This document shows positions 958 to 59,422 of a DNA stretch of 64,000 nucleotides, one piece after another. Source of the stretch: Patescibacteria group bacterium (GTDB lineage Bacteria > Patescibacteriota > Patescibacteriia > Patescibacteriales > UBA12465); contig JBAZZR010000002.1 in assembly GCA_041658665.1 (NCBI GenBank), positions 243,437 through 307,436 on the forward strand, in the 5' to 3' direction. The translations under genes and the position numbers were made by a program. The notes beneath the pieces are model-generated. The model searched no databases and had not been told where the DNA came from. It saw only the letters and a program-made list of their open reading frames with translations. How positions within the stretch are numbered: the first letter of the stretch is position 1; every line of letters starts with the position of its first letter.

Positions 958-1617
958 ATGCCAATTTTTATTCCTAAAAAACTGCCGCTCGAAGAGACTA
1001 TCGGCGAACAACTGAGGAGAGCCAGACAATATAAAAATTTAGGACTAGAAGAAATAGCCCAAAAACTAAATATCAGAAAAGAATATTTATCCGCCATGGA
1101 AGAAGAAAATTTTGATAAATTACCAAGCGGTTTATACGGACGAAAATTTTTAAAAAAATATATCAATTTTTTAAAAGTAGAGACGAAAGGAATAAATGAT
1201 CAACAAAAAACTGGTCACGCCCCCGCCAGCAACGACAATCCTTTTTCTCAAAAAATAGTCAAAAAAAATAGTTTTATAATATTTCCCCAAATAATTAAAA
1301 ATATCCTGATCGTCGGCGGCATCCTAATTTGTTTTTTATATCTCATATTTTATTTCCAAAAAATAGTCACGCCGCCAAAATTAATAATTTATCAACCGGA
1401 AAAAAATACTCTCACTAAAAATAAATCTATTTTAGTTAGCGGGCAAACCGAAGCGGAATCAGAAATAAAGATTAATAACCAAATTGTTTTAAGCGACCAA
1501 AATGGCTCTTTTTCTCAGACGGTTAATCTTAAAAAGGGGCTCAACACTATAATAATCAGCGCCCAAAAAAAATATAGCCAAGCCCAAATAATTACTAGAG
1601 AAATATTAGCTGAATAA
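958..1617 (+). CDS. RodZ-like membrane protein with N-terminal helix-turn-helix domain
   Basis: N-terminus GEQLRRARQYKNLGLEEIAQKLNIRKEYLSAMEEENFDKLPSGLYGRKFLKKYINFL matches the RodZ HTH_25 pattern. It is followed by one TM helix and a C-terminal beta-rich domain. Confidence 0.5.
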   Translation: MPIFIPKKLPLEETIGEQLRRARQYKNLGLEEIAQKLNIRKEYLSAMEEENFDKLPSGLYGRKFLKKYINFLKVETKGINDQQKTGHAPASNDNPFSQKIVKKNSFIIFPQIIKNILIVGGILICFLYLIFYFQKIVTPPKLIIYQPEKNTLTKNKSILVSGQTEAESEIKINNQIVLSDQNGSFSQTVNLKKGLNTIIISAQKKYSQAQIITREILAE

Positions 1618-32064: not shown

Positions 32065-33547
<1,483 letters not shown>

Positions 33548-33823: not shown

Positions 33824-34813
33824 TTATTTAACCCCAATTAATTTTCTCACCACCTCTAATTTTTTCTGAGCGATGGCTTCGGCTTTCTCGCGGCCATTCT
33901 CTAATATTTCTAAAACCTCTTCGTCACTAATATTTTCATATTTTTTCTGAAAATCTCCTAAAAATTTAGCGACGACTTCGGCTAAATCTTTCTTAAAATC
34001 ACCGTAACCTCTGCCTTTATAATCTTTAACTAGGCGCGGAATTTCACGATTGCCCAAAACCGCATAAATTGTTAAAAGATTGGAAAGAGCTGGCTTATTT
34101 TCTATATCATAGTCGATCTCATCGCCTGAATCAGTGATCGCGCGCATTATTTTTTTTCTCGCTGCTTCTAGATCATCTAATAAACCGATACAATTATTTT
34201 GATTTTCATCACTCTTACTCATTTTCTTGGCCGGATCAAGCAACGACATTATTCGCGAACCCTCTCGACGGGCGACGGCCTGAGGGATTTTAAAAATACT
34301 ACCAAAATCTTTATTAAAACGCCGCGCAATATCGCGAGTTAATTCAACATGTTGCTGTTGATCCGCCCCAATCGGCACAATATCAGTATCATACAATAAT
34401 ATATCAGCCGCCATTAAAACCGGATAATCATACAAACCAACGCTCACCGCTTCCTGATTTTTGCCAGCTTTATCCTTAAACTGAGTCATCTTATTTAAGT
34501 CAGCAATATAGGCTCCATAACAATTAAAGATCCAAGCTAGTTCGGTATGCGCCGGAATGGCCGATTGTTGGAAAATAATGGATTTTTTCGGATCAATACC
34601 GGCCGCTAAATAAATTTTAGCGACTTCGATAATTCGTTTTCTTAATGCTGTCGGATCTTGCTTAACGGTAATTGCGTGATAATCGACAATCGAAAAAATA
34701 CAATCATATTCTTTTTGCATTTTCACCCATTGAGAAATCGCTCCGATATAATTACCAATATTCAAGCGACCGCTAGGCTGAATACCAGAAAAAATAATTT
34801 TGGTAGTAGTCAT
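33824..34813 (-). CDS. trpS: Tryptophan--tRNA ligase
   Basis: Class I HIGH-like motif (GIQPSGRLNIGNYIGA) and KMSKS. Length 329 aa. Confidence 0.9.
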   Translation of the reverse strand: MTTTKIIFSGIQPSGRLNIGNYIGAISQWVKMQKEYDCIFSIVDYHAITVKQDPTALRKRIIEVAKIYLAAGIDPKKSIIFQQSAIPAHTELAWIFNCYGAYIADLNKMTQFKDKAGKNQEAVSVGLYDYPVLMAADILLYDTDIVPIGADQQQHVELTRDIARRFNKDFGSIFKIPQAVARREGSRIMSLLDPAKKMSKSDENQNNCIGLLDDLEAARKKIMRAITDSGDEIDYDIENKPALSNLLTIYAVLGNREIPRLVKDYKGRGYGDFKKDLAEVVAKFLGDFQKKYENISDEEVLEILENGREKAEAIAQKKLEVVRKLIGVK

Positions 34814-34861
34814 ACAAACAGCATAAATAATTAATCTCTTACTTTTATTGTACTGAAAATA

Positions 34862-36091
34862 CTAGCGAAAAGCAATTTCGCCATATTTTTCTTCAATATA
34901 ATCCAGGTCTTTATCACCTCTCCCCGATAAATTAACAATAATTATTTGGTCAGAACTTAATTTAGGGGCAGTCTTGATCGCCTGAGCAATAGCATGAGCG
35001 CTTTCTAGAGCCGGGATAATCCCCTCTAAGCGAGAAAGTAAAACGAAGGCTTCTACGGCTTCTTGATCGCTGACTGTTGTATATTCAACTCGTCCCGTGT
35101 CTTTTAAAAAAGAATGAATTGGACCAATCCCGGGATAATCTAACCCGGAAGCAATAGAATGGACCGGTTGAGGCTGACCATTTTTATCCTGTAACAAATA
35201 AGTATGCATACCATGCAAAGTGCCCGGCTGGCCATAAGTCAGTGTCGCGGCATGTTCACCAACGCCACGGCCTCGTCCACTCGGCTCAGCGCCAATCATC
35301 TTTACAGTCGCTTCATCTAAAAATTCGTAAAATAGGCCGAGGGCATTAGACCCGCCCCCAACACAACCGATCAAAACGTCGGGTAAACGATTTTCTTTAT
35401 CTAGTATTTGTTGTTTAGCTTCCCGACCAACAATACTTTGGAAATAGGCGACTAATGAGGGGTAGGGATGGGGGCCGACGACCGAACCAATGGCGAAAAA
35501 AGTCGTTTGGTACTCTTTCATATAAGTCATAAAGGCACTATCAACTGCGTCTTTAAGTGATTGTCCACCCGATTCTACTTCGACTACCGTGGCCCCCAAT
35601 AATTTCATTCGCTTAACATTTTCTTGCTGTTTCTTAATATCAATCGCGCCCATATGAATTTCGCATTCAAGTCCCATCACGGCTGCAGCCGTAGCGAGCG
35701 CCACGCCATGCTGGCCCGCTCCGGTTTCAGCCAACACTTTTTTCTTTCCTAAGCGCTTCGCTAACAATGTTTCGCCTAAACAGTGATTAATTTTATGAGC
35801 TCCAGTATGATTAAGATCTTCTCGCTTCAAATAGATTTTAGCACCACCCAACTTCTTAGTTAAATTTTTCGCGTAGTAAAGCGGGGAAGGACGACCGACA
35901 TAATCACGTAATAAAGATTGATACTCTGCTAAAAACAAGGGGTCTCTTTTAGCTTCGCTAAAAGCGGCTTCGACTTCACGCAAAGCGGGAATTAATTCTG
36001 CGGGGACAAACTGACCGCCATAAGGGCCATAAAAGCCGTCTTTATCAGGCAAACTATGATAAGATTCCTTAAAAATTATTTTATTAGACAT
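34862..36091 (-). CDS. trpB: Tryptophan synthase beta chain (stand-alone; no trpA in window)
   Basis: PLP-lysine region LKREDLNHTGAHKINHCL, GAGQHGVALA, GGGSNALG and SGRGDKD give high similarity to canonical TrpB1 throughout. Confidence 0.85.
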   Translation of the reverse strand: MSNKIIFKESYHSLPDKDGFYGPYGGQFVPAELIPALREVEAAFSEAKRDPLFLAEYQSLLRDYVGRPSPLYYAKNLTKKLGGAKIYLKREDLNHTGAHKINHCLGETLLAKRLGKKKVLAETGAGQHGVALATAAAVMGLECEIHMGAIDIKKQQENVKRMKLLGATVVEVESGGQSLKDAVDSAFMTYMKEYQTTFFAIGSVVGPHPYPSLVAYFQSIVGREAKQQILDKENRLPDVLIGCVGGGSNALGLFYEFLDEATVKMIGAEPSGRGRGVGEHAATLTYGQPGTLHGMHTYLLQDKNGQPQPVHSIASGLDYPGIGPIHSFLKDTGRVEYTTVSDQEAVEAFVLLSRLEGIIPALESAHAIAQAIKTAPKLSSDQIIIVNLSGRGDKDLDYIEEKYGEIAFR

Positions 36092-36591
36092 ATAATTAGT
36101 TTAAATTTATTAAATAAGGTTCAATAAAACTGCCGATATTAATTATCGACTGAAACAGGTATAGTTTCGCCAAGAATGATTGGTGCGATTGTAAAAATAA
36201 AATTTATCCATAAATTAGTAGTCGGGCCTATTCTGGTATATCTCAGCTCACCCTAATAAAAAAGACCCCAAGGGGGGCCAGCCAAAAACCTTGTTCACCG
36301 TCTCCATTAATTATGACAACGGTTATCCTATGATTACGGAGGAAGCCGAATCTCCACTAACGCAGAGACTATCCCCCGGTCGAACACTATTATGCTCGCC
36401 GGTGTTTATGCCCAACCCCGGTAAATCCGGGACATAAACTAAGATTTTAGAATTGTAATTTGTACTAATAATGACAATATAGCTCACGAATCTAAAAGTG
36501 TCAATACTAAAAATAATTAAAATGGCTCCTTGAAAAATAAATTTTTTGTGTTAATATACAATCGAGGAAGATTCTCCTTTTTTTATTAGTT
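36092..36591 (-). ncRNA. About 500-nt ORF-free structured leader upstream of trpB on the minus strand (candidate regulatory RNA; identity unresolved)
   Basis: No ORF on either strand. The minus-strand RNA contains the GC hairpin GGCCCCCCUUGGGGUC plus U6, followed by AUUAGGGUG (partial T-box-like). Other local hairpins are present. Confidence 0.25.
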
Positions 36592-36662
36592 CGGGCTGTA
36601 GTATAATGGTAGTACGCGTGCATGGGGTGCATGTAGCCCCGGTTCGATTCCGGGCAGCCCGA
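36592..36662 (+). tRNA. tRNA-Pro (anticodon GGG)
   Basis: Manual fold: acceptor cgggctg/cagcccg, anticodon loop auGGGgu, T-loop ttcgatt. Confidence 0.7.
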
Positions 36663-52080: not shown

Positions 52081-52154
52081 GGGCATATAGCTCAGTTGGT
52101 TAGAGCACCGCTCTTATAAAGCGGGGGTCGATGGTTCAAGTCCATCTATGCCCA
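52081..52154 (+). tRNA. tRNA-Ile (anticodon UAU)
   Basis: gggcatatagctcagttggttagagcaccgctcTTATAAagcgggggtcgatggttcaagtccatctatgccca gives a clean cloverleaf. The body resembles tRNA-Ile and the anticodon loop is cuUAUaa. Confidence 0.7.
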
Positions 52155-52170
52155 CGACTAATAAAATAAA

Positions 52171-54757: not shown

Positions 54758-55504
54758 TTAGCTAACAATTTCTCCATCAATAACCCCGGCGGCCTTAGAG
54801 CCGCTATTTTTTTTAAAAGTTAAACCCTGCTGTAAAGCGGTTAATAGAGTTAACACCAACCAATAAAGCGTCAGCCCGCCGGGCAGGGAAATACCAATAA
54901 AAATAGTTAGAGCGGGCATAAAATAAAGCATTTGTTTATTCATAATCGCCGCCATATTATCTTCTGCCCCTTTAATCGCGTTAACCGCTGGCTTATTAAT
55001 CATCATTTTCGCCTGCAAAAATTGAGCTAGACCGGCTAAAACCGCCAAATAAACACTCGGATGAGCTAAATCTAAAAAACCCAAAGATAGAGTATTAATA
55101 ATTGTTGGTCGACTAATAAAAGAGTAAGTCAGCTCTAATTGATTATTAATACTATTAGTAAAAACTCGATAAACAGCTAATAAAAATGGTAGTTGAATAA
55201 GTAGTGGCAAACAAGAAGAAAAGGGATTAACTTTATTTTCTTTATACAAATCCATGGTCGCACGGCTGAGCTCGGCCTTATTGTCAGCATGTCGTTTCTT
55301 CAGCTCCTCTATTTTCGGTTGCAAATCTTGCAGGGCTTTCTGGGACTTAATTGCTGTTCTGCCTAATGGCCAAAAAACTAATTTTATAACTACCGTTAAT
55401 AGAATAATAGCAATACCTAGATCCTGAAAAGAAATAGTATTATATAAAAAAATTAAAAGATTTAAAATCGGCTGGTAAAAAAGAATCGTAAAAATTTGCG
55501 ACAT
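54758..55504 (-). CDS. yidC: Membrane protein insertase YidC (short Gram-positive/Oxa1-type)
   Basis: Five-TM core with a conserved hydrophilic groove region (…KSQKALQDLQPKIEELKKRHADNKAELSRATMDLYKENKVNPFSSCLPLLIQLP…). Confidence 0.8.
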   Translation of the reverse strand: MSQIFTILFYQPILNLLIFLYNTISFQDLGIAIILLTVVIKLVFWPLGRTAIKSQKALQDLQPKIEELKKRHADNKAELSRATMDLYKENKVNPFSSCLPLLIQLPFLLAVYRVFTNSINNQLELTYSFISRPTIINTLSLGFLDLAHPSVYLAVLAGLAQFLQAKMMINKPAVNAIKGAEDNMAAIMNKQMLYFMPALTIFIGISLPGGLTLYWLVLTLLTALQQGLTFKKNSGSKAAGVIDGEIVS

Positions 55505-55609
55505 AAAATTTATCTATTTTATTAAATTTAAAAATATGTAATTAATCATTACAATATATATTATATCTCCCGTTCATTATAAATTATAAACAAAAAATAA
55601 GCCACTTAT

Positions 55610-55864
55610 TTATTTTAGAGGATCGTCGCCTCCTTTATTCCAGGGATTACAGCGCAAAACACGCCAAACCGCCAAAGAACCACCCTTAACCACACCATAC
55701 TTATCAATAGCTTCTAAACAATAAGTTGAACAACTGGGCGTAAAACGACAAAAGCCATAAGGGTAAAAAAATTTAAATAAACCATGATCGGGAGACAAGG
55801 TTTTTTGATAAACTTTTATTAGAAAAACTAATATTTTTCTAGGTATAAATAATATTTTTAACAT
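55610..55864 (-). CDS. yidD: Membrane protein insertion efficiency factor YidD
   Basis: YPYGFCRFTPSCSTYCLEAIDKYGVVKGGSLAVWRVLRCNPWNKGGDDP matches the YidD signature. Confidence 0.8.
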   Translation of the reverse strand: MLKILFIPRKILVFLIKVYQKTLSPDHGLFKFFYPYGFCRFTPSCSTYCLEAIDKYGVVKGGSLAVWRVLRCNPWNKGGDDPLK

Positions 55865-55884
55865 AAATAATATTAAATATTAGC

Positions 55885-56226
55885 CTAATTATAAAGTTTT
55901 AAGCGACTAAAACCAGATTTTAGGGATAATCTAATATCAGTAAAATTTTTATCTAATATTGGCGGAAGAACAATAATAACCAAATCTTTACCTGTTTTCA
56001 TTTTTTCCAGCTCTTCTTTAATAATAGATCTTATTCTTCGCTTAATAAGATTACGAACAGTGGCTTTTTTGCTAACTTTAGTACTAACTAATATTCCAAA
56101 ACGATTAACCCCTAAATTATTATCAACTGATTTAACCCCAATAAGTTTATCATAAAAAGATTGACCAAACTTAAAAGCTTGGTCAAAATCTTTATCAAAC
56201 TTAATTCGATTATTCTTCGCTAGCAT
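55885..56226 (-). CDS. rnpA: Ribonuclease P protein component
   Basis: Basic 113-aa protein with a conserved RnpA-type basic motif (…ATVRNLIKRRIRSII…). Lies between rpmH and yidD. Confidence 0.8.
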   Translation of the reverse strand: MLAKNNRIKFDKDFDQAFKFGQSFYDKLIGVKSVDNNLGVNRFGILVSTKVSKKATVRNLIKRRIRSIIKEELEKMKTGKDLVIIVLPPILDKNFTDIRLSLKSGFSRLKLYN

Positions 56227-56252
56227 TTACGCTATTCTAAGATTTACTTAAC

Positions 56253-56381
56253 TATTTTCTTACGACCTTTCTCGCGGCGACGGCGTAAAACCTCACGGCC
56301 ATCTTTAGTAGCCATTCTCTTTAAAAATCCATGTTTTGTTTTGGCTCGGCGCTTGTTTGGCTGGTAGGTTCTTTTAGGCAT
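56253..56381 (-). CDS. rpmH: 50S ribosomal protein L34 (not in the supplied ORF track)
   Basis: Manual translation of the minus strand gives [42 protein letters not shown], which is classic L34. It starts the rpmH-rnpA-yidD-yidC cluster. Confidence 0.75.
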
Positions 56382-56593
56382 AAATCACATTTTTAATTTA
56401 TTAATTCTTATATAAGATAACATCTTTATTTAATGAAGTCAATAATTTTTTTTACTTTAAATCTTATCTTATCCACTTGTTATCAACATCTTCTAAACAA
56501 ATACCCAGCTTGTTATAAAATTATTTATCTAATATAATTAGGTTTATAAATATACTCTAACCTAACTCCGATTTTTAACGTTAATCTATTGGT
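56382..56593. other. oriC part 1: rpmH-dnaA intergenic region with adjacent DnaA boxes
   Basis: cTTATCCACTtgTTATCAACAtc (two boxes, each 8/9 to the TTATCCACA consensus) in AT-rich DNA. Gene orientation switches here (minus-strand genes upstream, plus-strand genes downstream). Confidence 0.6.
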
Positions 56594-58024
56594 ATGACAA
56601 ACGAACAAATTTGGCAGGCTGCCCTCGGGGAAATCGAGGTAAATTTATCACGCGCTAATTTCATTACCTGGTTTAAAGATACTTTTATCTCGTCTTTTGA
56701 AAACGAACGAATTATTTTGTGTGTCCCCAACGCTTTCGTAAAAAAATGGCTAGAAGAAAAATATCACCGCAATATTATTAGTGCTTTAGAAAATATTACT
56801 AAACAAAAAATTAAGGAAATAATCTATAAAATAGAATTAAAAAAGAACTCTAGTAGTTCTCAATTTAATCCTAGTAAAAATACCGAAAAAAATGGTAACG
56901 AACAACCAACTGGAGGTTTGAATAAATTTCCTGGTCAAGCGGCAACTCTAGAAACGAGTGGGTCCTTAAATAACGGCAGCCAAACTGGATCAAATCAATA
57001 TGGTTTAAACCCCCGCTATGTTTTCGAAAACTTCATTGTTGGACGAGGCAATGAATTAGCTCATGCCGCCTGTTTAGCAGTAACCGAAAATCTTGGTAAA
57101 TCTTATAACCCTTTATTTATCTACGGCGGTGTTGGTTTAGGAAAAACTCATCTTCTCCAAGCGATTGGTAACGCGGTCAGCAAAAGAACCAATAAAATTT
57201 TATACGTCACTAGTGAGAAATTCACTAATAATTACATCCAATCTGTGAAGGGCGGCCGCGCTAAAGAATTTAAAAATTTATATCGCAATGTTGATCTCCT
57301 CTTAATAGACGACGTTCAATTTATGGGCGGAAAAGACGGCACTCAGGAAGAATTCTTTCATACTTTTAATGAACTACAGCAGAACGATAAACAAATTGTT
57401 TTGACTTCTGACCGCCCCCCAAAATCAATCCCCGCTATTGAAAGCCGCCTAATTTCTCGCTTTGAGTCGGGAATGGTCGCTGATGTCGGTAAACCAGACA
57501 TCGAAACAAAGGTGGCTATTTTAGAAAGAAAGGCAATCGAAAAAAACTATCCCCTAGATAAAGAGATTCTAATGTACATAGCCGAACATGTCCAAAATAA
57601 TATTCGTGAATTAGAGGGGGCTTTAATTAAAGTTATCGCTTCCCACCAATTCAAGGGGATAACCCCTAATCTAAAAAGTGTTAAAGATATTCTTAACGAT
57701 TATGTCTCGAATATTCAGACAAAATCTTTAACACCAAAAGAAATTATTGAGGCCACCGCAAAATTCTATAATTTAACTTATAAAGATCTAATCAGTAAAG
57801 GGAGAAAAAAAGAATTGGTTTGGCCAAGGCAAATAGCTATTTTCTTAATCCGGGAAGAAATCGGAACCTCCTATCCTAGCATCGGGGCGGAACTCGGCGG
57901 GAGAGATCATACTACCGCCATGCACTCTTATAATAAAATCTACCAAGAAGTAAAAGAAAATGGGAATGAAAAAATTAAACAAGAAGTGGAGTCTATCCGA
58001 CAATTATTTTCAAGCGCTTACTAA
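56594..58024 (+). CDS. dnaA: Chromosomal replication initiator DnaA
   Basis: Walker A motif GGVGLGKTHLLQAIGN, AAA+ sensor motifs, and a C-terminal DNA-binding domain (…TSYPSIGAELGGRDHTTAMHSYNKI). Variable low-complexity linker (domain II). Confidence 0.9.
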   Translation: MTNEQIWQAALGEIEVNLSRANFITWFKDTFISSFENERIILCVPNAFVKKWLEEKYHRNIISALENITKQKIKEIIYKIELKKNSSSSQFNPSKNTEKNGNEQPTGGLNKFPGQAATLETSGSLNNGSQTGSNQYGLNPRYVFENFIVGRGNELAHAACLAVTENLGKSYNPLFIYGGVGLGKTHLLQAIGNAVSKRTNKILYVTSEKFTNNYIQSVKGGRAKEFKNLYRNVDLLLIDDVQFMGGKDGTQEEFFHTFNELQQNDKQIVLTSDRPPKSIPAIESRLISRFESGMVADVGKPDIETKVAILERKAIEKNYPLDKEILMYIAEHVQNNIRELEGALIKVIASHQFKGITPNLKSVKDILNDYVSNIQTKSLTPKEIIEATAKFYNLTYKDLISKGRKKELVWPRQIAIFLIREEIGTSYPSIGAELGGRDHTTAMHSYNKIYQEVKENGNEKIKQEVESIRQLFSSAY

Positions 58025-58294
58025 AAATCTGGTTTATTTCTGTGTATGAGCTGTGTAAAAATTATGAATAAAGGTCTAATTAATGTGAATAAAAATTGTC
58101 GAGGTGTTGATAAATAACTAAATAAAAAAAGTTATTAACGCCCACTCGAAATAATTAACAAGAAAATCAACAAGCTATAAACAAACGAAATTAAACAAAA
58201 CCCTAATTAAATGATTAAAATCGCGATAAACAAAAATTTATCCACCCCCTTATTACTATTATTAATTATATAATTAATAATTATAAATAATAAT
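58025..58294. other. oriC part 2: dnaA-dnaN intergenic region with DnaA boxes and an AT-rich unwinding element
   Basis: TTATCCACC, TGTTGATAA and TGTGAATAA boxes. A 45-nt pure A/T tract lies immediately upstream of dnaN. Confidence 0.55.
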
Positions 58295-59422
58295 ATGCGC
58301 TTAATAAGTTTACAAGAAAATTTAAAAAGAGGCCTCAATATCGTCGGCCATATTACCACTAAAAATATTAATTTACCGATATTAAATAATATTTTGTTTA
58401 GGGTGGAAAATGGTAATATTGAATTAGTAGGGACTAACTTAGAGGTGGGGATCACTTATCAGTTGAGGGGGAAAATAGAAGGCGAAGGAGCCTTTACGGT
58501 CGACTCTAAACTCATTACCGAGTATGTAAATCTCCTAAGCTCGGGCGAAAAAGTTAAAATTGAAGAAAAGGAAAATGAACTAAAGGTTGAATGTGGTAGC
58601 TATAAAACTAAGATTAAAGGGGAATCGGCTAAAGAGTATCCGCTTATTCCGGCAATTTCCAAAGAGAAGTATTATAGTGGCCGTATTGATGATTTTAGAA
58701 AAGCGTTAAATAGTGTAATTTTCGCTGTCTCTACTAGTGAAAACAGAGTTGAATTAACTGGAGTACTTTTTTCTTTTTTCGAAGATAAGCTTTGTTTGGC
58801 AGCCACTGACAGTTATCGTTTAGCCGAAAAAGAGCTAGTCGTTCGAAATAATGGTTTAAGCGGTGAATATAAAGTCATTGTTCCAGCTAAGACTACTCAG
58901 GAACTACTTCGGATATTAAATAATTTAGAAACAATTTCTTTAGAACAAAATAATGGGGAGATTAAAATATATTTAAGTGATAACCAAATTTTATTTTCGG
59001 TTGATTCGGTTGATCTAATTTCCCGACTTATTAGTGGTCATTACCCCGATTATAAACAAATTATTCCTACTCAGAGTCAAACTAAAATTTTAGTCGATAA
59101 ACAAGAGTTACTCAGAGCGACTAAAGCCGCTGCCTTATTTTCGAAAACCGGTATTAATGATATTTCTCTGGGGTTTTATAAAAATAAAATTGTTGTTTCC
59201 TCGTTTTCTGGCGCTAGCGGTGAAAGTCAAATTGAAATAGAAGCAGAAATTGACGGTCCGGATAATGAAATCACGATAAATTATAGATTTTTATTAGATG
59301 GTTTAAATAATATTGATACGGACTTAGTTCGGATTTTTATTTTAAATACTAACTCCCCTTGTTTGTTAAAAACAGAAAAAGGAGAAGATTATTTATATAT
59401 TGTCATGCCGATAAAACAATAA
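58295..59422 (+). CDS. dnaN: DNA polymerase III beta sliding clamp
   Basis: 375 aa with a three-domain clamp pattern. N-terminal MRLISLQENLKRGLNIVGHITTKNINLPILNNILF. Confidence 0.85.
   Translation: MRLISLQENLKRGLNIVGHITTKNINLPILNNILFRVENGNIELVGTNLEVGITYQLRGKIEGEGAFTVDSKLITEYVNLLSSGEKVKIEEKENELKVECGSYKTKIKGESAKEYPLIPAISKEKYYSGRIDDFRKALNSVIFAVSTSENRVELTGVLFSFFEDKLCLAATDSYRLAEKELVVRNNGLSGEYKVIVPAKTTQELLRILNNLETISLEQNNGEIKIYLSDNQILFSVDSVDLISRLISGHYPDYKQIIPTQSQTKILVDKQELLRATKAAALFSKTGINDISLGFYKNKIVVSSFSGASGESQIEIEAEIDGPDNEITINYRFLLDGLNNIDTDLVRIFILNTNSPCLLKTEKGEDYLYIVMPIKQ

Follow-up and report, generated by a model that had tools for sequence, protein, structure and literature searches.

The window analysed here is a stretch of 64,000 nucleotides from a Patescibacteria group bacterium (contig JBAZZR010000002.1), and our subject is the leader region of its tryptophan (Trp) genes, in which a T-box-derived RNA without a discriminator is followed by a short open reading frame (ORF) with a Trp codon. 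The gene trpB (tryptophan synthase beta chain, 34862..36091) lies upstream of trpS (tryptophan--tRNA ligase, 33824..34813; TIGR00233, 369 bits), with both on the minus strand and 48 nt apart, as a preliminary description of this DNA had stated. That description had also taken TrpB to be of the canonical TrpB1 type and to have no trpA partner, and both statements were borne out, the latter within the window. The protein is TrpB1, scoring 569.1 bits against TIGR00263 (equivalog cut-off 392) and 190 bits against the TrpB2-type model TIGR01415, far under the cut-off of 519. No trpA adjoins trpB, and no trpA, trpC, trpD, trpE, trpF or trpG was detected by a Pfam scan of the 20 ORFs of suitable size in the 64-kb window. 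The start of trpB carries no Shine-Dalgarno sequence. Upstream of it is a spacer of 500 nt (36092..36591), bounded at its far end by a tRNA-Pro(GGG) gene on the plus strand.

A strong sigma-70-type promoter is located inside this spacer (36476..36504, minus strand), with TTGACA at 36504..36499 and TATATT at 36481..36476 separated by 17 nt and 11 of 12 positions matching the consensus. The pattern TTGAC(A/T)-17-TATAnT occurs at the equivalent position in seven related loci, which we designate by L-numbers throughout (L081, L084, L085, L086, L091, L093 and L133). Because the promoter sits inside the spacer, the leader transcript extends only about 380 nt to the trpB start, and the earlier figure of roughly 500 nt must be shortened accordingly. 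Nor is the leader free of ORFs, as had been proposed, given that 21 distinct relatives conserve, as coding sequence, a 22-codon ORF at 36211..36143 (minus strand). Before the conserved domain described below, a small 5′ hairpin (AUUGU...ACAAU, 36452..36478, minus strand) can be read from the sequence, and counterparts with different sequence are present in L081 and L088. Farther downstream, overlapping the start of trpB, is a weak promoter-like site (36105..36078; 9 of 12 matches).

Related leaders were collected using a genome scan with TrpB, a protein search combined with contig look-ups, and one metagenome scan with a leader motif. A blastn search of the leader against the first 80 loci recovered a sole match of 29 nt in L009, which led to the family. 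In the metagenome pattern the triplet was left free (UAGNNNA), and the scan returned 39 stretches, 29 of them bearing the motif with UGG. All matches that had the other conserved motifs of the family contained UGG; those with a different triplet were unrelated, GC-rich and apparently coding sequences with none of these motifs. Once loci fetched earlier had been added, the family comprised 28 distinct members, and L133 and L137 joined later. We then built a covariance model of 151 positions (R1) solely from 14 members that bear a T-box, with the clade of the window excluded. This model matched the window at 36449..36294 over its full length (model positions 1-151; 122.6 bits, E 9.4e-28), and it matches 30 loci in total. 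No copies of the domain beyond those already known were found in the window or in 40 loci, and none with another specifier. By this homology and the covariation below, the 156-nt RNA (36294..36449, minus strand) evidently descends from the tRNA-decoding half of a Trp-specific T-box family that is unannotated and belongs to uncultured bacteria.

The structure was placed by hand on an alignment of 21 sequences (A1), and all of its elements are on the minus strand. A closing helix, P0 (36445..36442 with 36375..36372), encloses a three-way junction that contains Stem I, formed by the 7-bp helix P1 (36439..36433 with 36410..36404) with an inner hairpin (36432..36416), together with a variable hairpin, P2 (36402..36376). 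These are followed by the Stem II hairpin (GAUYUC, loop UGCGYUAGUG, GARAUC; 36370..36349), Stem IIA (CGG/CCG) with an F-box-like CCGUAA (36348..36334), the partner AGGA of the IIB pseudoknot (UCCU with AGGA; 36329..36326) and a helix designated P5 (36323..36297). In A1, 94.5% of cells were paired and 21 pairs had changed on both sides. The covariation score was 0.389, compared with 0.197 for shuffled alignments (0 of 500 reached the observed value) and at most 0.105 for slid partners. Covariation supports P0, P1, Stem II, the IIB pseudoknot and P5; in the pseudoknot, UCCU with AGGA is replaced by UUCU/AGAA, CCCU/AGGG or UCCC/GGGA.

Specifiers of T-boxes lie on the 3′ side of Stem I and are followed by a purine. 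In the window, the 3′ side of Stem I carries the bulge UUGGG (36411..36415), and the form YUGGG is invariant in all aligned members, where it provides the only invariant UGG outside a helix. The preliminary description had suggested looking for a UGG specifier loop, and we regard UGG at 36414..36412, upstream of trpB-trpS, as the candidate Trp specifier. Another candidate, the UGG of UAGUGGA, was rejected, as it is helical in Stem II and undergoes a compensatory replacement in L137.

Complete T-boxes are common in this family. In 20 of the 28 distinct members, a canonical UGGNACC antiterminator follows this domain, with the T-box sequence GGUGG(C/U)ACC(G/A)CG and a terminator located 105-165 nt past the core. 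Three sister leaders (L091, L093 and L096) have the same 5′ domain, a hairpin with a U-run, the T-box AAGAAAGGUGG[C/U]ACCGCG with a terminator, and the short ORF. L093 lies on contig FLOH01000015.1 of GCA_900089805.1, while L133 comes from the SRR25490523 series. The Rfam T-box model RF00230 scored 52.9 bits on L093 (E 7e-11) and 32.4 bits on L009. In L093, the F-box/Stem IIA, Stem III and T-box columns were aligned with high posterior probability; CGGCUUCCUCCGUAA fell in the Stem IIA/F-box columns, also at high posterior, and the window is identical there. Both scores are below the gathering threshold of 93 bits because Stem I is non-canonical, with no K-turn, distal platform or canonical GAA/AGUA specifier-loop motifs; the additional helices P2 and P5 are further differences from RF00230. 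Features shared with RF00230, and in particular with Stem II types that have a short Stem I (e.g., actinobacterial ileS), are a UGG on the 3′ side of Stem I followed by a purine, a Stem II hairpin leading into a compact IIA/B pseudoknot with the F-box-like CCGUAA, and a purine-rich linker into Stem III. Searches of the literature on T-boxes in Patescibacteria or the Candidate Phyla Radiation (CPR) and on discriminator-less T-box derivatives yielded nothing relevant, and the same was true of tryptophan synthase in connection with CPR and indole.

Genes behind complete T-boxes of the family include trpB, one for a TrpD-like phosphoribosyltransferase (PF00591), one of the BtpA family and several whose products are uncharacterised. 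In six loci (L095, L106, L111, L112, L125 and L126), complete Trp-family T-boxes precede genes that are not obviously trp, among them a BtpA-family gene, a gene for a PPDK_N-domain protein and one for a conserved unannotated protein with the motif GYELSACQLE. The targets in these six loci may belong to a Trp-related regulon of uncultured bacteria that has so far gone unrecognised.

In the window, what follows the decoding domain differs from these sisters. A GC hairpin, GGCCCC(CCUU)GGGGUC, with a U6 run (36258..36279, minus strand; terminator-like in a terminator scan) aligns with the upper part of Stem III in L091, L093 and L096 and now occupies the terminator position. Relative to the sister T-boxes, the window alignment shows a deletion of about 90 nt in which the T-box sequence, antiterminator and terminator are gone. 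We found no GGTGGNACCGCG or GGUGGNACCGCG within two mismatches in the window leader, and the RNA has no T-box bulge (UGGNACC), helix A2, antiterminator or competing terminator or sequestrator. For the only hairpin with a U-run that could take the part of a T-box terminator (36279..36258), the clade conserves no alternative partner that would form an antiterminator. Loss of the discriminator is shared by nine leaders (the window, L133, L137, L081, L084, L085, L086, L088 and L097), in all of which the short ORF comes after the 5′ domain and the U6 hairpin, with nothing between hairpin and ORF; since it is common to all nine, the loss is old. The base of the hairpin (36283..36274) reads CUGGCC in all nine discriminator-less leaders, compared with UGACC or CGACC in the T-box-bearing sisters L091, L093 and L096; its UGG is a single derived change coinciding with loss of the T-box bulge. 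Two long-range antiterminators (AAGGNC with GUCUU, and GGGGUU of Stem I with GGCCCC) can be drawn on paper; they are weak and without covariation, and we do not claim them.

The preliminary description had located the GC hairpin and U6, followed by AUUAGGGUG, and had taken the latter as a match to the first nine nucleotides of the T-box consensus. The hairpin (36279..36258) and AUUAGGGUG (36257..36249) are indeed there, the latter at the start of a spacer (36212..36257, minus strand) that reads as degenerate remains of both the Stem III 3′ strand and the T-box region. The T-box match itself does not hold: AUUAGGGUG follows the hairpin and precedes no terminator, it aligns only weakly with UUUUUUGUAGGGUAAGAAAGGUGGUACC of L093, and its best alignment is to GUAGGGUAAG of L093, in the 3′ strand of the lower helix of Stem III, immediately before the real T-box. 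The closest relative, L133 (TrpB 95% identical), has UUUUUGGCG in its place, and the sequence is missing from seven other clade members, including L081, L084, L085, L086, L088 and L137. Unlike the domain and the hairpin, the stretch after U6 is not conserved, and AUUAGGGUG reads as a decaying relic. The suggestion of a tRNA- or Trp-sensing, T-box-related leader therefore stands as to ancestry, by way of the 156 nt located 5′ of the hairpin, and falls as to the reason that was given for it.

Identification of the leader as a divergent or translational T-box was not upheld either. At the gathering threshold, Rfam recovered only tRNAs and rRNA in the window, and a covariance search of the leader, as had been proposed, gave no T-box match over 36040..36620, nor any other, even at E<=10. 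A review (PMC7583486) describes the discriminator as indispensable and as virtually the same in every known T-box, and the RNA of the window clade cannot be placed among the T-boxes because it lacks this element. The leader is a T-box derivative plus a leader peptide, for which the label 'T-box' is right on ancestry and wrong on membership.

Several results indicate that the truncated RNA has nonetheless been maintained. When the window is compared with the other clade members, identity at the four-fold degenerate sites of trpB is only 34-42%, close to saturation, with L133 (66%) as the exception, while the decoding domain is 74-96% identical across the same comparisons. Within the discriminator-less clade, compensatory changes affect P2, Stem II of L137 and the hairpin, where a C-G pair has become U-A in L086. 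Because the RNA is so similar despite the saturated trpB sites, compensatory changes have accumulated and the promoter is conserved, we consider the decoding domain and hairpin to be still under selection; the pattern argues for strong purifying selection on the domain after the discriminator was lost.

Downstream, between the hairpin and trpB, is the short ORF (sORF) of 22 codons, encoding MDKFYFYNRTNHSWRNYTCFSR (36143..36211, minus strand). It reads ATG GAT AAA TTT ... TGG CGA ... TAA and has a single Trp codon, codon 14, at 36172..36170. The ATG and TGG-14 are invariant in 21 distinct CPR trpB leaders, with constant spacing between them, and the peptide is conserved over 14 residues (consensus MxKFxFxN[R/H]xxx[S/F/Y]W[R]). 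Codon entropy is highest at the third position (1.02, vs 0.64 at the first and 0.77 at the second), and synonymous codons are used at Arg9 (CGN and AGA) and Ser13 (TCN and AGC). This coding signature is clear and marks the sORF, on comparative grounds, as probably translated and selected as a peptide. The sORF occurs only ahead of CPR-type trpB and is absent upstream of the non-CPR trpB loci.

Three types of first tier precede the sORF: a complete T-box, a truncated T-box, or a leader-peptide attenuator with tandem Trp codons (WW). In L003, L004, L006, L007, L008 and L011, the place of the T-box domain is taken, some 250-100 nt before trpB, by a classical tandem-Trp leader peptide (e.g., MVKKVNYMNAAWWTTHICG) with an intrinsic terminator, behind which comes the same 15-codon sORF. 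A WW leader and an upstream TrpR-like ORF are present in L010, which lacks the sORF. The sORF of L005, some 120 nt before trpB, has no stop codon and continues in frame into that gene, and in L008 the stop codon of the sORF shares bases with the trpB start codon (ATGA).

Across the 21 loci, the 45 nt from the Trp codon fold better than shuffled sequences (mean z -1.6). The first hairpin begins -1 to +4 nt from UGG in 17 of these loci, and a U-rich tail is present in about half. The window has a small hairpin (GAAAC/GUUUC) right behind the Trp codon, 4 nt past UGG, and then a second, terminator-like hairpin, GUCGAUAAUUAAUAUCGGC, followed by AGUUUUAUU (36123..36150, hairpin 36150..36132, minus strand; terminator scan); only the second has a U-rich tail, and its 5′ arm contains the sORF stop codon. 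The stop codon is located 9 to more than 60 nt past UGG and 40-90 nt before the trpB ATG in the various loci. No conserved alternative (antiterminator) pairing was found around the sORF hairpins.

The base after the sORF UGG is always C (36172..36169 in the window; 21 loci), though residue 15 may be R, Q, P or H, and Arg15 is never encoded by AGA, whereas Arg9 does use it. The constancy of UGGC suggests that the nucleotides themselves, or their decoding, are constrained. Bacterial tRNA-Trp usually has G73. The contig of L098 carries a tRNA-Trp(CCA) gene (1330..1405, minus strand) with A73 and also a family T-box with the bulge UGGC, in which the fourth base does not match the discriminator base of this tRNA. 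Pairing of UGGC, at the hairpin base or in the sORF, with G73-CCA of tRNA(Trp) stays speculative because the only tRNA(Trp) recovered, that of L098, has A73.

We favour, with moderate confidence, the interpretation that trpB-trpS is preceded by a two-tier Trp-responsive leader, in which the T-box-derived RNA lacking a discriminator is followed by the Trp-codon leader ORF. In the first tier, transcripts starting from the promoter at 36504..36476 would fold into Stem I with its UGG, Stem II, the IIA/B pseudoknot and an extra helix. Deletion of the discriminator in the clade of the window would have left the upper Stem III hairpin and U6 directly behind the decoding domain. Given that this domain appears to be under purifying selection, we infer that it still binds tRNA(Trp) and thereby modulates pausing or termination at the hairpin. 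In the second tier, read-through transcripts would bear the leader ORF with Trp codon 14, and a ribosome awaiting Trp-tRNA(Trp) at this codon would keep the hairpin or hairpins at or after it unfolded. Scarcity of tryptophan would in this way allow transcription or translation to continue into trpB-trpS.

This interpretation must be made cautiously, as several points weigh against it. We know of no T-box that works without a discriminator, and the role proposed for the remaining domain is consequently drawn from its conservation. The hairpin with its U-run also occurs inside the complete T-boxes of L091, L093 and L096, where it cannot terminate efficiently, and its role may therefore be limited to pausing. 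In the sORF the Trp codon is single instead of paired in tandem, and we found no conserved antiterminator alternative. Because the stop position and the distance to trpB vary, and because of how the hairpins are laid out in the window, a stalled ribosome melting a terminator fits some loci better than the window. A separate trpB-trpS promoter downstream of the hairpin is possible, and the conserved peptide hints at an arrest-peptide mechanism. One may postulate a more elaborate scenario, which we regard as unlikely, in which tRNA(Trp) docked on Stem I and Stem II acts directly on the Stem III-derived terminator and the 14-residue sORF peptide is a new arrest peptide that turns the single Trp codon (or free Trp or indole) into a sensitive switch. 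A possible route would be invasion of the CUGGCC base of the hairpin by the 3′ end of the tRNA. If true, CPR bacteria would control Trp salvage and charging by a previously unknown, minimal mechanism that relies on tRNA and a peptide.

Among alternative explanations, it is highly improbable that the leader is a complete, if divergent or translational, T-box with AUUAGGGUG as its T-box sequence. Although the 5′ domain is T-box-like and AUUAGGGUG directly follows the Stem III-derived hairpin, roughly where the T-box sequence of relatives starts, the UGGNACC bulge, helix A2 and any competing terminator or sequestrator are absent, and Rfam gave no match at E<=10. The nearest sister T-boxes moreover align this stretch to the 3′ strand of Stem III (GUAGGGUAAG) and not to the T-box, and it is altered in the 95%-identical L133 and absent from seven other clade members. 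That the T-box-derived domain is a non-functional relic, with any regulation owed to the sORF or to a promoter or repressor not seen here, we consider rather improbable. This reading would accommodate the loss of an essential discriminator, the progressive decay of the T-box region in the spacers of the window and L133, and the occurrence of the sORF tier with other first-tier sensors. A relic would not be expected, however, to remain 74-96% identical across lineages in which trpB four-fold sites are at 34-42%, to acquire compensatory changes in P2, Stem II and the hairpin, or to keep a conserved promoter ahead of it.

The same promoter, with the terminator-like end, bounds a compact RNA of about 210 nt, which could be an independent small RNA gene, for instance a trans-acting tRNA(Trp)-binding RNA, if trpB-trpS were transcribed from a promoter of its own. 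AT-rich promoter-like sites do occur downstream, such as that at 36105..36078 with 9 of 12 matches, but this site is weak and overlaps the trpB start. In 20 relatives the domain is contiguous with a discriminator controlling the next gene, and its orientation and distance to the sORF and trpB are kept in every clade member; we therefore judge a separate small RNA to be quite unlikely, though slightly less so than a relic. It is improbable, too, that the sORF, instead of being a simple sensor of a hungry codon, encodes an arrest peptide of the TnaC kind that detects free tryptophan or indole in the ribosome tunnel, or that it is left untranslated and UGGC serves as an RNA signal. All 14 conserved residues would be in the exit tunnel when codon 14 is decoded, the Trp codon is single, the base after UGG is always C despite the variation at residue 15, and indole induction would make sense given that TrpB uses indole. 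Yet the peptide has neither similarity to TnaC nor the W12-D16-P24 pattern, the synonymous changes at Arg9 and Ser13 favour translation over a pure RNA motif, and the A73 of the one recovered tRNA(Trp) offers no match to UGGC.

In Bacillus subtilis, rtpA (anti-TRAP) is subject to T-box control by tRNA(Trp) and additionally to control at the level of translation, according to the account in PMC10327191, which cites Chen & Yanofsky 2003, 2004. The rtpA leader, as described there, is the closest known arrangement to the two-tier leader we favour, in that two sensors of tRNA(Trp) charging succeed one another, an RNA that reads tRNA(Trp) and then a short ORF with Trp codons shortly before the gene. 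The window differs in having a single Trp codon, a conserved peptide, a hairpin at or near the Trp codon and a first tier without a discriminator. The rtpA leader peptide, rtpLP, reportedly has three Trp codons and a stop codon at the rtpA Shine-Dalgarno sequence; masking of the ribosome-binding site by a stop codon in this manner does not apply here, as the position of the stop is variable and trpB has no Shine-Dalgarno sequence. Attenuation by E. coli trpL shares with the window a short ORF in which Arg comes after a Trp codon, and a hairpin and U-rich stretch downstream, and the related CPR trpB leaders with a first tier of the WW type carry a true leader peptide and terminator. Classical trpL-type leaders need no conservation of the peptide at the amino-acid level; here the peptide is conserved at that level, there is one Trp codon, and we detected no conserved 2:3 antiterminator.

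Arrest peptides of the TnaC type follow the pattern W12...D16...P24-stop and, when free Trp is present, halt the ribosome at the stop codon. The sORF resembles them as a short conserved leader peptide with Trp, conserved along the part that would occupy the exit tunnel, and differs in having no sequence similarity, no W12-D16-P24 pattern and a variable stop position. The regulated genes also differ, being biosynthetic (salvage) and charging genes rather than catabolic ones. With stand-alone, TrpA-independent TrpB of indole salvage, the locus shares a TrpB1 without adjacent trpA; here it is coupled to trpS, and the absence of trpA and the rest of the pathway refers to the 64-kb window and the flanks of relatives.

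T-boxes are held to require three parts, among them an invariant discriminator by which aminoacylation is sensed. That a decoding module should be kept by selection without its discriminator is surprising, as is a Trp leader peptide specific to CPR trpB. The former would imply either a new way of coupling tRNA binding to expression or another function of the decoding module. The family also documents, in uncultured CPR-type bacteria, a T-box subfamily with a non-canonical Stem I that the Rfam threshold misses, and the conserved Trp-codon peptide, found together with stand-alone trpB across CPR lineages behind three kinds of first tier, may be a new regulatory peptide. These findings suggest that Trp and indole salvage is tightly regulated in these reduced, host-dependent bacteria.

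The gene order around the leader is itself conserved. Close TrpB homologues (70-95% identity) are plentiful in CPR metagenome-assembled genomes (MAGs), trpB-trpS adjacency is kept in nine loci (L021, L081, L085, L086, L089, L091, L093, L133 and L137), and the order der - lytR - tRNAs - leader - trpB - trpS is maintained in close relatives (TrpB 74-95% identical). The Trp-salvage unit proposed in the preliminary description, a stand-alone TrpB with TrpS, fits the local gene content and a synteny conserved in ten or more relatives, on evidence that is confined to the window and the flanks of relatives. A terminator-like hairpin, GGCGAAAUUGCUUUUCGCU followed by GUAUUUU (34863..34883, minus strand), overlaps the trpB stop codon and might partially uncouple trpS from trpB. 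The closest non-CPR homologues of the window TrpB (L012-L080) are about 60% identical and come from Acinetobacter, Neptuniibacter, Halomonas and others. None of the four of these loci that were inspected had an adjacent trpA on the same strand, and the TrpB lineage of the window may be a stand-alone paralogue more widely. A search of the window using Trp enzymes that neighbour non-CPR trpB obtained no queries, as those loci have no adjacent trp genes either.

A 16S rRNA gene (32065..33546, plus strand) without a linked 23S gene is followed by the opposite-strand trpS. The trpB-trpS-16S arrangement recurs in L021, a Candidatus Falkowbacteria MAG whose 16S is 94.1% identical to that of the window, and judged by its sequence the organism is a Falkowbacteria-like CPR bacterium. 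Within 54758..59422 lie yidC and rnpA (minus strand) and dnaA-dnaN (plus strand), and the window probably spans the chromosomal origin region. Bacteria mostly read AUA through a lysidine-modified CAU tRNA, and a UAU isoleucine tRNA is unusual; the window encodes a tRNA-Ile with anticodon UAU (52081..52155, plus strand), beside tRNA-Val(GAC).

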